NCBI GenBank assembly: GCA_002698305.1
Contig: NZWR01000005.1
Coordinates: 66,047-130,046 of the forward strand
From: Candidatus Campbellbacteria bacterium
GTDB lineage: Bacteria; Patescibacteriota; Minisyncoccia; Phycocordibacterales; UBA1006
DNA length: 64,000 nt
Direction of reading: 5' to 3'
Shown here in pieces: positions 24,188-28,444 of this stretch (its first letter is position 1; every line of letters starts with the position of its first letter). Position numbers and translations under genes: made by a program. The notes under the pieces were generated by a model that saw only the letters and a list, made by a program, of their open reading frames with translations, ran no database searches and was not told the DNA's origin.

Positions 24188-24955
24188 CTATTGTTGTTGC
24201 CGCTTCCACTCATACATAGCAATTGCTGCAGCTACTGATACATTGAGAGACTCAATAGTATGCTCCATAGGAATAGAAACTATGAAATCAGCGTTATCGC
24301 GAACTTTTTCAGACACCCCCTTCCCTTCAGATCCTACAACAAGCACGGTTGCTGTATCAAATGTATGATTCCAAAGAGAAAGTGGCTTTTTCGCGTGTTC
24401 GTCCATATCAATTGCGGTAACCCAAAACCGTGCCTCCTTAAGTTTGCTAATAGCTTGGTTAATATTAGAAACACGTACTACCGGAACATGTATCAATGCA
24501 CCTGCTGATGTTTTATACACAGTCCCGTTAATAGGTGCTTGTCTGTCTTTTGAGACAATAACACCAGCAACCCCAAGCGCTGCTGCACTGCGCAGAATAG
24601 CCCCAAAATTGTGAGTATCTTCAATATGATCAAGAACAAGAACACATGGATTGCTTTCAGTATCAAGTTGATCAAACCACTTATCAAAATCAACATAATC
24701 TGCCTGCTTTAAAAGAGCGATGACCCCTTGATCGTTAACGTCACCGACGTACTCTTCTATTTTCGCCTTGGTCACTGGGTTAACAGGAATTTTATGATCT
24801 TTAGCATAGGCTTTAAGTTCCTTAAAGTCATTTTCGTATTTTGCCATCGTATTTGATACGAATACGCGCATGACATTATCTGGATTCCGCATAAGTTGTT
24901 CTTCAACTGGCTTTTTACCAAAAATATAAAAATGAGATGTTTTTTTTCGTTTCAT
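24188..24955 (-). CDS. rlmB: SpoU/TrmH-class 23S rRNA 2'-O-ribose methyltransferase (RlmB-like)
   Basis: N-terminal L30e-like substrate-binding domain plus SPOUT motifs LDHIEDTHNFGAILRSA, VVGSEGKGVS and ESLNVSVAAAIAMYE. Confidence 0.8.
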   Translation of the reverse strand: MKRKKTSHFYIFGKKPVEEQLMRNPDNVMRVFVSNTMAKYENDFKELKAYAKDHKIPVNPVTKAKIEEYVGDVNDQGVIALLKQADYVDFDKWFDQLDTESNPCVLVLDHIEDTHNFGAILRSAAALGVAGVIVSKDRQAPINGTVYKTSAGALIHVPVVRVSNINQAISKLKEARFWVTAIDMDEHAKKPLSLWNHTFDTATVLVVGSEGKGVSEKVRDNADFIVSIPMEHTIESLNVSVAAAIAMYEWKRQQQ

Positions 24956-25008
24956 GGTATGTAGTGTATATGATTTTCTTGTTTTTGGTATAGGAAGCTA
25001 TTAAATAC

Positions 25009-25038
25009 AAAAAAACAATACTCAAGGTATTGTTTTTT
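25009..25038. terminator. Hairpin with flanking A/T runs (native terminator downstream of the tRNA-Ala site)
   Basis: aaaaaacaatac-tcaag-gtattgtttttt. Confidence 0.45.
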
Positions 25039-25039
25039 G

Positions 25040-25090
25040 CGTTTCGAGTGGACCTGACAGGACTCGAACCTGCCACCTCGTCAGTGCAAG
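25040..25090 (-). repeat. att site copy 1: orphan 3' half of tRNA-Ala (51-bp direct repeat)
   Basis: Identical at 51/51 positions to 28220..28270 (period 3180 bp). Corresponds to tRNA positions 32-73 plus 9 nt of trailer. No matching 5' half follows. Confidence 0.9.
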
Positions 25091-25117
25091 GTTTGTCTAG
25101 AGGCTTATTTGGCTCTC

Positions 25118-25140
25118 AAACCTTATTTTATAAGGGTTTT
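25118..25140. repeat. Hairpin motif, inverted copy of the 28191..28218 hairpin
   Basis: The reverse complement of aaaccttattttataagggtttt is AAACCCTTATAAAATAAGGTTT. This matches AAACCCTTATAAAATAAGGGTTT at 28194..28216 except for one missing G. Confidence 0.5.
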
Positions 25141-25315
25141 GGAAAATTCTGAGGTATCTATTTGCCTTATTTTTTACTAGCCCGTCAGGAACCACTTTTC
25201 TCTTGGTATTACAACATTCAATACAGGTTAAATCTGATTAAATATCGACATCATAATTATATCATATTGTCTTCATCTACATTGTAGCTTGATTTAGTAA
25301 CCAGAAGATACTGTC

Positions 25316-25344
25316 AATAAAAAGACCTGCATTTCTGCAGATCT
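25316..25344 (-). terminator. Intrinsic terminator of the int-ncRNA-RT unit
   Basis: Minus strand reads AGATCTGCA-GAAA-TGCAGGTCT (9-bp stem with one G:U) followed by TTTTTATT. Lies 7 nt after the RT stop. Confidence 0.75.
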
Positions 25345-25350
25345 TAGATT

Positions 25351-26250
25351 TCACTTAATTTTTGTTTTAAATTCTTGATAAAGCTCTAGAACTTTTTGCT
25401 CAGTTCTATTGAGCTTCCTTCCTTTCGATACAGATAAGAACAATCCCATCTTCCCATGAATTATTTGTGGGCTAATATTAGTTTTCTCTTTAAGTACAAG
25501 ATTTAGTAAACCTCTAATATGAGATAAATAGTGTCTTGGTGTAAATATCACATAAGAGCTACTAGTTTTTCTTAATCCTATACCATTTATTTCTATAGCT
25601 TTTTTATGTAAATCACCAAGATGTGTCTTCTTAATGTTTATCTGGAACTCACCCTCCCTTACGATATTTAAGAGTTTCTTCCTCTTTTTTCTACCAATAG
25701 GAAATTCAGAAGAGAATGTTAAGTCATCTAAGTAACGAGAGTAGGTTATGGAATGCATGTCACAATACTTTCTTAACGATTCATCAATTTTTTTTTCGCA
25801 ATAAATATTAAAGAGTAGAGGAGAAAGTGGTGCTCCTACAACAAGCCCTCCATCTTCACTCATACAATATCGTAGAAAAAATTGCTCTATCATTTCCTCT
25901 TCAATGATTTCTATAAAATACTCTCGAGTAGCTTCTATGAGTAAATCCAATTTAACATTCCCATAAGCGTTAGAAATATCTGTCATAAACCAATATCGTG
26001 GATAAAACGGTTTATGAGATGACTTTGTTTGACGCTTGTGACGCATTAGGTTTCTTTTAGGTGAATTCCCTGGCAAACCACCAGCAGCACTTGGTAAAAT
26101 AATTTCTTGTTTTTTAAACCAGTTCAAAATTTCGTAATGTATTTCTTTCATGGGTTCATTTGGCACCCATATTTTTCTTTTCTTAGTCTGACCACTAATG
26201 TTATTAACATCACTGATATAAACCTTCTGAAATGTGGGTGTTGAATCCAT
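25351..26250 (-). CDS. Reverse transcriptase, compact retron/UG-like (RT domain only, 299 aa)
   Basis: RT motifs in order: KRKIWVPNEPMKEIHYEIL (RT1), LPGNSPKRNLMRH (NAxxH-like, RT2), WFMTDISNAYGNV (RT3), GLVVGAPLSPLLFNIYCEKKID (RT4), YSRYLDDLTFSS (RT5, YxDD), INIKKTHL (RT6) and IEINGIGLRK (position of the retron VTG motif). No maturase, endonuclease or other appended domain. Confidence 0.85.
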   Translation of the reverse strand: MDSTPTFQKVYISDVNNISGQTKKRKIWVPNEPMKEIHYEILNWFKKQEIILPSAAGGLPGNSPKRNLMRHKRQTKSSHKPFYPRYWFMTDISNAYGNVKLDLLIEATREYFIEIIEEEMIEQFFLRYCMSEDGGLVVGAPLSPLLFNIYCEKKIDESLRKYCDMHSITYSRYLDDLTFSSEFPIGRKKRKKLLNIVREGEFQINIKKTHLGDLHKKAIEINGIGLRKTSSSYVIFTPRHYLSHIRGLLNLVLKEKTNISPQIIHGKMGLFLSVSKGRKLNRTEQKVLELYQEFKTKIK

Positions 26251-26303
26251 TTTATATAGTTTTAGTTTTTTAAATTAAAACATATATTAATTTATAAGTA
26301 AAT

Positions 26304-26328
26304 AAGCCCACCATGTTCTGGTGGGCTT
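26304..26328 (-). terminator. GC-rich hairpin between the ncRNA region and the RT start (attenuator/terminator or structural element)
   Basis: Minus strand reads AAGCCCACCA-GAACA-TGGTGGGCTT (10-bp perfect stem) followed by ATTTACTT. The U-tract is weak. Confidence 0.35.
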
Positions 26329-26339
26329 TGATTCAGTGA

Positions 26340-26555
26340 GGAAGGTCTGAAGGACGAGTAAGATTCTGAGATGAGGTCGTTTATTATCTCTAATAAGAAA
26401 GAAAAAAGAAAAACGTACTCCTTTTCATAAAAGGTTTCCTTAAGAAAAACCTTATTTTGTCACATGGGTGGCAAAATGATCTCATACCATAACTTATAAA
26501 GCTGGCATTGTGTAGGTAGGAAATAGGGCTCCTCTGCCTTTGTTTCAAACCTTCC
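26340..26555 (-). ncRNA. Candidate RT-associated structured ncRNA (msr-msd-like template RNA)
   Basis: Minus-strand GGAAGGTTTGAA (26555..26544) pairs with TTCAGACCTTCC (26351..26340): 12 bp with one G:U, enclosing about 190 nt. Internal hairpins: ATTTTGCCAC-CCAT-GTGACAAAAT (26477..26454), AAGGTTT...AAACCTT / CCTTTT-ATG-AAAAGG (26453..26420). A 5' hairpin GTCCGA-TTC-TCGGAC lies at 26573..26559. The region is directly downstream of a consensus promoter and upstream of the RT. No folding or expression data. Confidence 0.4.
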
Positions 26556-26600
26556 TTTGTCCGAGAATCGGACGGTTTATTTTCATTTGGGTTCATTATG

Positions 26601-26629
26601 ATTATAACTACTTTCAGTGTTATATGCAA
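26601..26629 (-). promoter_or_regulatory. Sigma-70-type promoter reading toward the ncRNA region and RT
   Basis: Minus strand: TTGCAT (26629..26624), 17-nt spacer, TATAAT (26606..26601). Lies 10 nt downstream of the integrase stop. Confidence 0.5.
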
Positions 26630-26638
26630 TTAATAATT

Positions 26639-27571
26639 TTAAAATGAAAGCTTATCAATATACACCCGCGCATTCTCAGAGCCAATAGATCTCACATACC
26701 GATCCGTCATCGTCACACTGCTGTGCCCAAGTGCTGACTTAATACTCACAATATCTGCATTGTTTTGTGCGAGAGAGGTAGCGAAGGTGTGGCGCAAGCT
26801 ATGAGTAGAAAAAGAAACTCCAGAAAGTGCTTTATACTTTTCTACCCAGGCTTTAAGTCCGTGAGTAGTGAGCCCAGTGTCTTGTTTACTTGAGATAAAT
26901 AGATACGCTGCTTTAGATTTTCGTTTACACAGTAACTTGAAATACGCTCTTAGGGAGAGTGTTAAGAGTGGGTTCATCGGAATATGTCGCCCTCTTCTTG
27001 ATTTAGATGACTGGGCTTTGATAAAAAGGAGCCGCTGGTCGAAATCTATATCAAAGGTTCGAAGGCCAAGTAGTTCCCCTCTTCGTATACCGGTATAGAT
27101 CAGAGTGTAGAAGAGAGCGATATTACGTGCTCGCAAAAAATCATTCTGTGGGTTAGCTAGTGAGATGGTAGCGATTAATGACTCTATTTGCTTTTTAGAG
27201 AGTGCTTTAACGTCACTGTAGTGTGGCTGCTGAGGCTTGGGTACCTTGTTGTAGAGTGTGCCAGGCGTGAGGTATCCTTGATGCTCTAGCCACTTAAAGA
27301 AGGCGTTTAGTTTTGAATGGTAGGTGTAGATGGTTGATCGCTTCACTTCCCTGCTTTCTTCCTGTGCTCTTCGGTGAATACGTTTATGGAACTCGACGAT
27401 GATGCTTGGTGACAGATGGTCTAGTGACTGTACCTCCGGCATTGTTTTGAGAAAGTTCTTCAGTACATCTCGATAGCTTCTGAGGGTTTCTGATTGTAAG
27501 CATCGAGCGAACTGAGCTTCTTGTAAATAGACGTAGCAGTAGTAATTAATTTGGTTTGATGTGTTATTCAT
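26639..27571 (-). CDS. int: Tyrosine recombinase / phage-type integrase
   Basis: N-terminal SAM-like core-binding domain. Catalytic region TGIRRGELLGL (Arg I), HSLRHTFATSL (HxxR) and LGHSSVTMTDRYV (His, Tyr nucleophile). Confidence 0.9.
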   Translation of the reverse strand: MNNTSNQINYYCYVYLQEAQFARCLQSETLRSYRDVLKNFLKTMPEVQSLDHLSPSIIVEFHKRIHRRAQEESREVKRSTIYTYHSKLNAFFKWLEHQGYLTPGTLYNKVPKPQQPHYSDVKALSKKQIESLIATISLANPQNDFLRARNIALFYTLIYTGIRRGELLGLRTFDIDFDQRLLFIKAQSSKSRRGRHIPMNPLLTLSLRAYFKLLCKRKSKAAYLFISSKQDTGLTTHGLKAWVEKYKALSGVSFSTHSLRHTFATSLAQNNADIVSIKSALGHSSVTMTDRYVRSIGSENARVYIDKLSF

Positions 27572-27657
27572 ACCTCTGTAGTGTATGAATAGTTTAGTGG
27601 AAATGAATGAGGGGTTATAGTATCAAACATAGATACAATTTTTGATATACTAGTTTT

Positions 27658-28146
27658 ATGCTGAACTTATTAAAACAAATAGCAGATAAATTTTATATTA
27701 ATCTTTTGAACAAGAATGATTCGGATAGTTTTAAATCTGTCATAAAAGAGTCAACAACAGGTGACATCGCAGGAAGAGATTTATATAAAACTTCCAATAC
27801 AGAAAAACTCTTATCTAATATTGAAAAGAAAATATTGAAAATACTATATCGCGAGTATCAAGATCGGGGTAAAAATGGATTTAAAATACGTAATACCCAC
27901 AGTGAATTAGAAATTGATGATGGTTTTGACTTAACTTGTGTAAATGATAGTGAATACATAAAAACAGAAGGTGATTTTTATAAAATGACACCCCATGGTA
28001 TTAGATATATGGATAATCTTACACCAATAGATTTATCACAAATAATGCTACCGAAGGAGGAGGGAGAAAGGGAATTTATTATGCGGCAACAAAGACAACG
28101 ATTTGAGCAGAACAGAGCGAATTTCAAAAAGAACTCTAGTAGATAA
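27658..28146 (+). CDS. Hypothetical protein (orphan cargo of the element, divergent from int)
   Basis: 162-aa ORF preceded by an extended -10-like TGATATACT. A central KILKILYREYQDRGKNGFKI segment is faintly wHTH-like, and the tail is basic. No family recognised. Confidence 0.5.
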   Translation: MLNLLKQIADKFYINLLNKNDSDSFKSVIKESTTGDIAGRDLYKTSNTEKLLSNIEKKILKILYREYQDRGKNGFKIRNTHSELEIDDGFDLTCVNDSEYIKTEGDFYKMTPHGIRYMDNLTPIDLSQIMLPKEEGEREFIMRQQRQRFEQNRANFKKNSSR

Positions 28147-28190
28147 AAGACGTGGTGCAAAAAATTGATACTTTCCAAGCTTGAGCAAGC

Positions 28191-28218
28191 AAAAAACCCT
28201 TATAAAATAAGGGTTTTT
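28191..28218. terminator. Hairpin with A/T flanks abutting the att core (element-borne terminator for tRNA-Ala and the orphan ORF)
   Basis: aaaaaacccttat-aaa-ataagggttttt. Ends 2 nt before the 51-bp core. Confidence 0.55.
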
Positions 28219-28219
28219 A

Positions 28220-28270
28220 CGTTTCGAGTGGACCTGACAGGACTCGAACCTGCCACCTCGTCAGTGCAAG
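28220..28270 (-). repeat. att site copy 2 (51-bp direct repeat inside the intact tRNA-Ala)
   Basis: Identical to 25040..25090. Confidence 0.9.
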
Positions 28271-28302
28271 TGACGCGCTCTAGCCAGATGAGCTACAGGC
28301 CC
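28229..28302 (-). tRNA. tRNA-Ala(UGC)
   Basis: Reverse complement is GGGCCTGTAGCTCATCTGGCTAGAGCGCGTCACTTGCACTGACGAGGTGGCAGGTTCGAGTCCTGTCAGGTCCA. G3:U70 alanine identity pair, anticodon loop CTTGCAC, discriminator A73, no encoded CCA. Confidence 0.9.
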
Positions 28303-28444
28303 CAATACAGCAAAAACTGCTGTGTTGTAAATTAGTGAAGGCGCAAGCCTTCCAAAGAACAACTGGAAAAGATTATATAGGCTAGTATGAAATATGCAAG
28401 TATCTTGTTGTACGAAGAGTAAGAATGGAATAGTCAATCCTTTG

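Follow-up and report, generated by a model that had tools for sequence, protein, structure and literature searches.

A probable two-component retron of Patescibacteria: a retron-lineage reverse transcriptase and its partner RNA with no linked effector gene

Retrons are currently seen as three-part defence systems, in which a reverse transcriptase (RT) and its DNA product hold a toxin in check. The locus described here consists of an RT gene and a structured non-coding RNA; it lies in a window of 64,000 nt from a marine Candidatus Campbellbacteria bacterium (positions 66,047 to 130,046 of contig NZWR01000005.1, assembly GCA_002698305.1). The window is the whole stretch that was analysed; coordinates count from its first letter, and those of the features are collected in Table 1. 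A first reading, made from the sequence alone, had recognised an RT with retron-style motifs, a promoter, an RNA closed by a long-range helix, and no effector gene. The RT belongs to a family found in bacteria with genomes of about 1 Mb, in which a retron-type RT is accompanied by a covarying partner RNA and by no linked effector. The family poses the question of what a retron RT and its RNA can do alone, which PMC7736814 leaves open for orphan retrons. The answer favoured here is that the locus is probably a two-component retron, composed of a retron-lineage RT and its cognate non-coding RNA without an effector gene.

The RT of the window is of retron lineage, and not of group II, diversity-generating retroelement (DGR) or UG/DRT type (DRT: defence-associated reverse transcriptase); the basis is sequence profiles and predicted fold. 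The motifs listed by the sequence-only reading are present: LPGNSPKRNLMRH (N67..H71), GAPLSPLLFN, YSRYLDDLTFSS, and EINGIG. The hallmarks of retron RTs are NAXXH in region X, where H shows the strongest conservation, and VTG in region Y, where G does (PMC7736814). An alignment of 49 family RTs, A1, was the source of the conservation profile, the PDB profile search and the AlphaFold model. At the NAXXH position of A1 the window has N67-L-M-R-H71, with an invariant H71 and an N67 conserved to at least 90%; at the VTG position it has I221-N-G223, where G223 is invariant and I221 is at least 90% conserved. Y173, D175 and D176 are also invariant. RVT_1 is the sole Pfam family found, and the predicted structure of the 299-aa protein shows no extra domain, in line with the description of the protein as an RT domain only. 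In the PADLOC scan all best matches are retron RT models, from 9e-25 downward. In the NCBIfam scan retron_St85_RT is on top, yet well under its own cut-off, and the Drt2 and group II maturase models score far lower. The exact protein is recorded as MAQ77419.1 (Candidatus Campbellbacteria metagenome-assembled genome, MAG), and a search of 5.8 billion proteins gave 65 relatives at 30-59% identity.

When the RT is classified against group II and UG enzymes, as had been proposed, retron RTs come out best. The family profile finds Ec83 at 1e-32, Ec86 at 6e-29, Ec78 at 3e-25 and Ec67 at 2.5e-24 among PDB sequences; other RTs follow with the group II enzyme GsI-IIC at 7e-10, Drt2 at 2e-8, Drt3a at 1.5e-5 and AbiK at 1e-3. 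The AlphaFold model built from A1 (pLDDT 95) gives the same picture: its best 18 fold matches in the PDB are all retron RTs, followed by Drt2, group II, DRT9 and G2L4 structures. The TM-score is 0.48 for Drt2 and about 0.65 for retron RTs. The DRT2/UG2 alternative that had been raised for this enzyme is not borne out at this level, as the NCBIfam Drt2 model (NF041746), which has a cut-off of 390 bits, gives a score of 28.7. A degenerate group II intron, a DGR or another self-mobile retroelement would be consistent with the presence of the cassette at many genomic sites and with the weak match of the RT domain to the group II maturase model TIGR04416. That match, however, reaches 30.9 bits where the cut-off is 300; the short protein has no maturase, endonuclease or Avd partner, and no Rfam intron family matches the locus of the window or 12 homologous loci. 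Neither a template/variable repeat pair in 24800..28400 nor a DGR-type neighbour was found, and no family member was found in IMG/VR viral contigs. An origin of this kind is barely credible.

The family is within the retron lineage yet outside the 13 described types, because the A1 members match many type models about equally. In PADLOC each of the 49 members hits many retron RT models, and the best E-values range from 1e-25 to 3e-34. Type-specific models match all of them about equally and only moderately (best VI 3e-34, II-A 1e-33, XI 4e-33), which sets the family apart from classical retrons. No UG/DRT model is among the 25 PADLOC families listed for the 49 members. UG38 is a small class 2 UG/Abi group found only in the Candidate Phyla Radiation (CPR; PMC9226505). 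The family strongly favours retron models over UG/Abi ones, which speaks against its membership in UG38.

The RNA is closed by a long-range helix resembling the a1/a2 helix of retrons. In the window its arms, AGGAAGGTTTGAA and TTCAGACCTTCCT, pair over 13 bp with one G:U; the sequence-only reading had counted 12 bp. The minimum free energy (MFE) fold of 26300..26600 (-82.8 kcal/mol) holds this helix and several enclosed hairpins, as had been predicted for the interior. The z-score against dinucleotide shuffles is -5.4, and none of 100 shuffles is as stable. The helix score of the window alone is moderately unusual; it is reached by 3.5% of shuffled and 1.9% of natural 450-nt windows. It is reached by 40% of RT-upstream regions in the family, and helices are enriched there (Mann-Whitney p = 7e-14 against shuffles, 9e-17 against natural windows of the same loci). 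The upstream regions of homologues contain long-range inverted repeats of 11-16 bp in the same relative position and with different sequences. Arms from one locus pair far better with each other than with arms of other loci (median 30 vs 22, p = 1e-20), and in 22 of 54 cases, including that of the window, the cognate 3' region outranks every other partner.

MAFFT alignments of full-length RNAs (646 and 574 columns) had so many gaps that neither a full-length covariance model nor a formal count of helix pairs could be based on them; the helix was therefore tested by the alignment-free statistics above and by RNAalifold on two sets of close relatives. No structure was supplied in either case. 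The first set was the window with L161, the closest homologue, whose RT is 59% identical and which has no integrase. The helix was recovered with three double and two single compensatory changes and no broken pairs. In the second set, a seven-member subfamily, the closing helix, both hairpins and the variable-domain stem were recovered. In most of about 50 related loci the RNA is closed by a helix that is equivalent in place and different in sequence. Conservation and covariation of the helix, named earlier as a check on it, are thus seen in three forms: enrichment, locus-specific pairing and compensatory changes.

The hairpin GTCCGA-TTC-TCGGAC had also been pointed out and is present just upstream of the 5' arm. 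Its 16 nt, CGTCCGATTCTCGGAC, are identical in L161 (16/16), where the flanks differ. Past the 5' arm comes a stretch of 20-90 nt, variable in length among homologues, which in the window forms two lineage-specific hairpins. A conserved module of two hairpins, HP1 and HP2, follows. In alignment A2 double compensatory changes occur at 17 of 17 pairs of this module, and the loop of HP2 alternates between GNRA-like and UUCG forms across the family. A covariance model of the module, R1, matches the window at 36.2 bits (E = 3e-6), as the sole match in the 64 kb, and matches about 45 family loci at E < 0.01. Over 66 R1 matches 92% of cells are paired, vs 66.5% for shuffles and 43-52% for slid partners, in an alignment fitted to the model.

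A pyrimidine tract, CGTTTTTCTTTTTTCTTTCTTATT in the window, lies 10-17 nt past HP2 in family RNAs. In 71% of them, vs 10% of background windows, 10 or more consecutive pyrimidines are present in the 70 nt past HP2. The tract has scattered C residues and changes in sequence from member to member; it is possibly a template, an RT stop signal or part of a triplex. In many members purines predominate in the 5' arm of the closing helix (GGGAG, GGAAGG).

Across the family, the 3' domain of the RNA varies greatly in both length and sequence. In the fold of the window its segment AUCUCA (26372..26367) pairs with UGAGAU (26484..26479). In other members a covarying stem, GGUUC...GAACC, closes the variable domain, and the motif UCAGCG lies just past it. 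Directly 3' of the closing helix is a tail motif with the family consensus C-R-C-U-G-A. In 23 of 42 RNAs the pattern C[GA][CT]TG is present in the 12 nt past the helix, compared with 2.5% of background windows. Because the motif played no part in helix detection, it independently confirms the helix end. Most loci have a tail complementary to the upstream UCAGCG, and L098 and L011 show compensatory variants; this pairing is absent in the lineage of the window, and one subfamily pairs the tail with the 5' flank instead. L161 keeps the 5' hairpin, the pyrimidine tract and the tail motif. By analogy with known retrons, HP1/HP2 would be the msr and the variable 3' domain the msd. Neither the RNA of the window nor those of 12 homologous loci match any Rfam family, and the RNA family defined here is absent from Rfam. 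To our knowledge, neither a conserved pyrimidine tract nor a C-R-C-U-G-A tail has been described for retrons.

Of the consensus promoter proposed by the sequence-only reading, part stands: TTGCAT-17-TATAAT is present, and L161 has TTGCTT-17-TATAAT at the equivalent place. The -35 hexamer agrees with TTGACA at three of six positions, and in this AT-rich window the pattern TTG-N20-TATAAT is no rarer than chance (2 found vs 2.35 expected). Support for the site is positional. The strong intrinsic terminator between RNA and RT is missing from the sequence-only reading. L161 keeps a terminator there through compensatory changes, and many homologues have one too. A 79-aa open reading frame (ORF; 26390..26629, minus strand), which overlies the promoter-like site together with the RNA's 5' two-thirds and matches no protein family, is probably spurious.

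The RNA lies upstream of the RT in about 35 loci and downstream in about 16 (L105, L109, L111, L113, L115, L023, L108, L116, L123, L006, L009, L011, L013, L014, L107, L120). Downstream RNA genes are 56-460 nt past the RT and on the same strand. Seven loci of one tight RT clade (L023, L105, L108, L109, L111, L113, L115) have a TAYAAT box 16-26 nt upstream of the 5' arm. The order of RNA and RT has changed more than once, since the downstream loci comprise this one clade and at least three scattered cases. R1 matches at E < 0.001 are all on the RT strand, from a few hundred nt to about 1.1 kb from the RT gene. Diverged tandem copies of the RNA, two or three beside a single RT, are present in six loci: L003 (4451, 4804), L005 (124, 391), L008 (4427, 4732), L011 (6049, 6351), L018 (3838, 4247, 4593) and L099 (1398, 1759). 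A closing helix of differing sequence can be identified in several of the copies.

The downstream order, the tandem copies and the terminator of its own make the RNA look like an independent gene linked to the RT, rather than a leader of the RT mRNA. The window itself would allow the other view, that the structured region is a mere 5' leader or attenuator; here the region lies between the promoter-like site and the RT, and the terminator could attenuate. This view is very improbable given the loci with the RNA downstream, the TAYAAT box before the 5' arm in one clade, the two to three tandem copies elsewhere, and covariation far beyond the needs of a simple attenuator.

The claim that no effector lies next to the RT holds across the family. 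An exhaustive profile search of 1.84 billion cluster representatives (50% identity) at E <= 1e-30 gave 576 representatives; each of the best 150 reaches 264 bits or more, and most have a length of about 300 aa. The family thus comprises as many as 576 clusters at 50% identity. Species-genome and metagenome scans yielded 160 loci, 91 of them scoring at least 90 bits against the RT of the window; the analysed set is the 76 non-redundant loci with at least 100 bits and a complete RT ORF. In these 76 loci there is no neighbour protein cluster common to the family, and the genomic position of the cassette is not conserved. The 101 nearest substantial flanking ORFs are housekeeping genes (aminoacyl-tRNA synthetases, EF-G, SecA and the like), and none of their Pfam families is seen more than three times. 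There is no conserved small ORF in the family loci. No effector gene is linked to the RT-RNA unit.

The family is almost entirely patescibacterial (CPR). Among 185,579 species genomes scanned there are 33 family loci, a very patchy distribution; 28 of the 33 are labelled CPR, Saccharibacteria, Parcubacteria/Paceibacterota and Kerfeldbacteria among them. Three of the others are labelled only 'bacterium' and two are MAG contigs of 'uncultured Gammaproteobacteria'. The latter, L005 and L015, may reflect mis-binning or rare transfer. A full-text literature search on retrons in CPR, Patescibacteria and Saccharibacteria gave no description of the family, and an effector-less CPR retron family is apparently undescribed so far.

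Retrons are tripartite in the scheme of PMC7736814, with an effector or fused domain; neither a conserved neighbour protein, a Pfam domain nor a small ORF fills this place in the 76 loci. The same work records (msr-msd)-RT cassettes that stand alone: one set is the Ec107/Eco5 branch of clade 2, mostly from Gammaproteobacteria, the other a part of clade 11, essentially from Actinobacteria. For these it leaves open a trans-acting effector or a different mechanism. Those cassettes share with the present family a retron RT and RNA with no linked protein. They differ in their hosts, as the present family is almost confined to Patescibacteria. The PADLOC model RT_Ec107-like matches the family no better than models of other types do (window E = 1.9e-19, family best 3e-27).

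In the window, the RT-RNA cassette is cargo of a minimal 3.18-kb integrative islet in tRNA-Ala. The islet is bounded by 57-nt direct repeats (56/57 nt identical), 3180 nt apart. Between them are the orphan ORF162, a tyrosine recombinase, the RNA and the RT, and nothing else. A tyrosine recombinase and direct repeats of a tRNA 3' end, which mark a tRNA-targeting element, are both present, and the same arrangement is found in 19 marine contigs. The integrase and ORF162 were not found beside homologues of the RT in the family; the integrase is outside the conserved unit. A retron on an integrative element at a tRNA gene has a precedent in Ec73, which is carried by the P4-like element phiR73. Both have a retron as cargo, a tyrosine recombinase, insertion at a tRNA 3' end and direct repeats. 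The islet differs in its size and in its content: it has no phage genes, and besides the cassette it carries just the integrase and one orphan ORF; moreover, homologous cassettes occur elsewhere without an integrase. Cassettes of the family often adjoin RNase P RNA, tmRNA or tRNA genes, which are typical insertion sites of integrative elements (L087 4145..4537; L102 6358..6711; L001 5913..6482; L105 218..291; L111 4713..4786). By a rough estimate, adjacency to tRNA genes is modestly raised.

The islet cargo and the patchy distribution suggest an accessory, probably anti-phage, function. The housekeeping flanks can also be taken in another sense, namely that the RT-RNA pair has been domesticated for a cellular, non-defence role, such as a ribonucleoprotein of nucleic-acid metabolism in these reduced-genome bacteria, possibly aided by a host factor whose gene lies elsewhere. 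In favour are the lack of a defence-island setting and the size and diversity of the family within a single superphylum, and PMC7736814 raises the same possibility for orphan retrons. However, accessory cargo that moves horizontally fits better than a housekeeping gene, given the patchiness (33 loci in the genomes scanned), the shifting genomic position, the integrase islet of the window and the frequent position beside stable-RNA genes used as insertion sites. Domestication is rather unlikely.

The two-component retron reading is directly supported in the RT lineage, the RNA structure and its covariation, the linkage of RT and RNA in two orders, the lack of a linked effector and the islet. 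It agrees with classical retrons (Ec86/Eco1, Ec83, Ec78) in RT lineage and fold, in the NAXXH-type and VTG-type motifs, in an adjacent RNA closed by inverted repeats, and in the succession of conserved 5' hairpins and a variable 3' stem domain. For cDNA synthesis, priming chemistry, template boundaries and biological role, analogy with those retrons offers a model. The RNA would be about 300 nt long, running from about 26594 to 26300 on the minus strand, with its own promoter and terminator. The closing helix would join its ends, with the conserved hairpins in the 5' half and the variable stem domain, which starts with the pyrimidine tract, in the 3' half. As in solved retrons, the RT may bind the msr-like hairpins, and the closing helix may set the priming hydroxyl beside the 3' end of the variable domain. 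The RT would then copy the msd-like domain into a short multicopy single-stranded DNA (msDNA), kept in the RT-RNA complex. Output would come from the RT-RNA-DNA complex itself or from a factor encoded elsewhere.

Several observations weigh against this reading. The retron msr-msd layout of the sequence-only reading holds as far as an RNA closed by an a1/a2-like helix is concerned; it does not hold for the terminator, which in the window splits the RNA from the RT, unlike the co-transcription of classical retrons, nor for loci in which the RNA is downstream or duplicated. Classical retrons prime at a conserved unpaired G at the inner end of a1. No such conserved G could be located after the 5' arm in 42 RNAs of the family, whose conserved Gs all lie inside the helix. 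The variable domain of the window is without the long stable hairpin typical of msd. None of the 13 retron types matches the RT of the 49 aligned members better than the rest, and for no type is the matching accessory gene present. The flanks are housekeeping genes and not defence islands, so a defence role is circumstantial. Finally, the cDNA product is so far a prediction.

The lack of an effector and the conserved tract give some weight to a different mechanism, in which the effector role falls to the DNA product, as it does in class 2 DRT systems. A short stretch of the RNA, such as the pyrimidine tract, would be copied over and over by the RT, and the product on phage infection would be a long purine-rich, homopolymeric or repetitive DNA, not one short msDNA. 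DRT2 (UG2), DRT9 (UG28) and DRT10 (UG17) are likewise units of an RT and a structured RNA with no separate effector. In DRT2 a helix juxtaposes the ends of the template, much as the closing helix here joins the ends of an internal region. DRT9 templates poly-dA from a universally conserved poly-U tract (PMC12483538), and a U/C-rich tract is conserved in the present family. The RT, however, is of retron and not UG/Abi lineage; DRT9 structures rank under all retron RTs in the fold search, and solved Drt2 and DRT9 chains have 425-499 residues where family members have about 300. The tract, too, holds interspersed C and varies in sequence between members. A never-ending reading frame, as expected of a DRT2-like system, is not found in the family RNAs: candidate repeat units share no stop-free frame and show no bias to multiples of three (lengths modulo 3: 9, 4 and 8, with guessed boundaries), which speaks against a Neo-like gene. 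A few sporadic stop-free frames were seen, none of them common to loci and none in the window, again with boundaries that were guessed. A DRT-like product is unlikely, though a DRT9-like use of the pyrimidine tract is conceivable.

A broader proposal is that a CPR-wide branch of retrons has dispensed with protein effectors and become an RT-RNA machine whose DNA product is the output. This is unlikely. In one version purine-rich or repetitive DNA would be made from the pyrimidine tract. The tail motif, with its complement, might serve as a conformational switch, and the autonomous RNA genes, at times two or three per RT, would be exchangeable templates. If the proposal were true, the effector-less branch would be a retron-derived counterpart of DRT2, DRT9 and DRT10 that arose independently.

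Under the favoured reading of a two-component retron, the family differs from classical retrons in its missing effector and in its autonomous, movable and sometimes duplicated RNA gene, while the retron-like design of the RNA is kept. The family shows that the RNA of a retron may be a gene in its own right, placed before or after the RT and sometimes present in several copies. In practical terms, RTs of about 300 residues with compact cognate RNAs are candidates for retron-based DNA production.

Table 1. Features of the RT-RNA cassette and of the islet that carries it (window coordinates)
Feature	Position	Strand	Basis or remark
Retron-lineage RT, 299 aa, fingers/palm and thumb only	25351..26250	-	Profile, PADLOC and fold evidence
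Promoter-like TTGCAT-17-TATAAT	26629..26601	-	TTGCAT 26629..26624, TATAAT 26606..26601; 10 nt after integrase stop codon
5' hairpin GTCCGA-TTC-TCGGAC, just upstream of 5' arm	26573..26559	-	MFE fold
5' arm (a1-like), AGGAAGGTTTGAA	26556..26544	-	Sequence, MFE fold, compensatory changes vs L161
Two lineage-specific hairpins, between 5' arm and conserved module	26539..26514 and 26508..26484	-	MFE fold
Conserved two-hairpin module (msr-like)	26476..26427	-	HP1 26476..26455, HP2 26453..26431; alignment, covariance model
Variable 3' half (msd-like), candidate template	26430..26352	-	MFE fold; template role putative
Pyrimidine tract CGTTTTTCTTTTTTCTTTCTTATT	26415..26392	-	24/24 nt identical in L161
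3' arm (a2-like), TTCAGACCTTCCT	26351..26339	-	Sequence, MFE fold, compensatory changes vs L161
Tail motif CACUGA, directly 3' of helix	26338..26333	-	Conserved in L161
Intrinsic terminator, 10-bp stem and T-run, 54 nt before RT start codon	26328..26304	-	Ends RNA gene
Intrinsic terminator directly after RT stop codon	25345..25322	-	Terminator prediction
Xer-like tyrosine recombinase	26639..27571	-	Pfam Phage_integrase 4e-30; NCBIfam Xer models
Orphan ORF162, 162 aa	27658..28146	+	Possible excisionase, regulator or cargo
tRNA-Ala(UGC)	28228..28302	-	tRNA prediction
First attachment (att) repeat	28214..28270	-	3' 43 nt of tRNA-Ala and 14 nt downstream
Second att repeat	25034..25090	-	Partial copy of tRNA-Ala 3' end

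Three further observations concern the islet. ORF162 has no Pfam match, and a search of 5.8 billion proteins found no homologue but itself; there is a weak match (E = 0.008) to the PADLOC model WH_III-A, the winged-helix protein of type III-A retrons. Near-palindromic hairpins, AAAACCCTTAT(N4)ATAAGGGTTTT, lie just inside both islet ends (25118..25140 and 28193..28217) and are 96% complementary; they may be terminators or arm sites of the recombinase. A Logan contig of 3189 nt from SRR5322015 (L169) corresponds to 25061..28249 of the window, that is, one att period with a 9-nt terminal overlap. It was left out of the evidence, and may be the excised circular islet or an assembly-graph break at the repeat.

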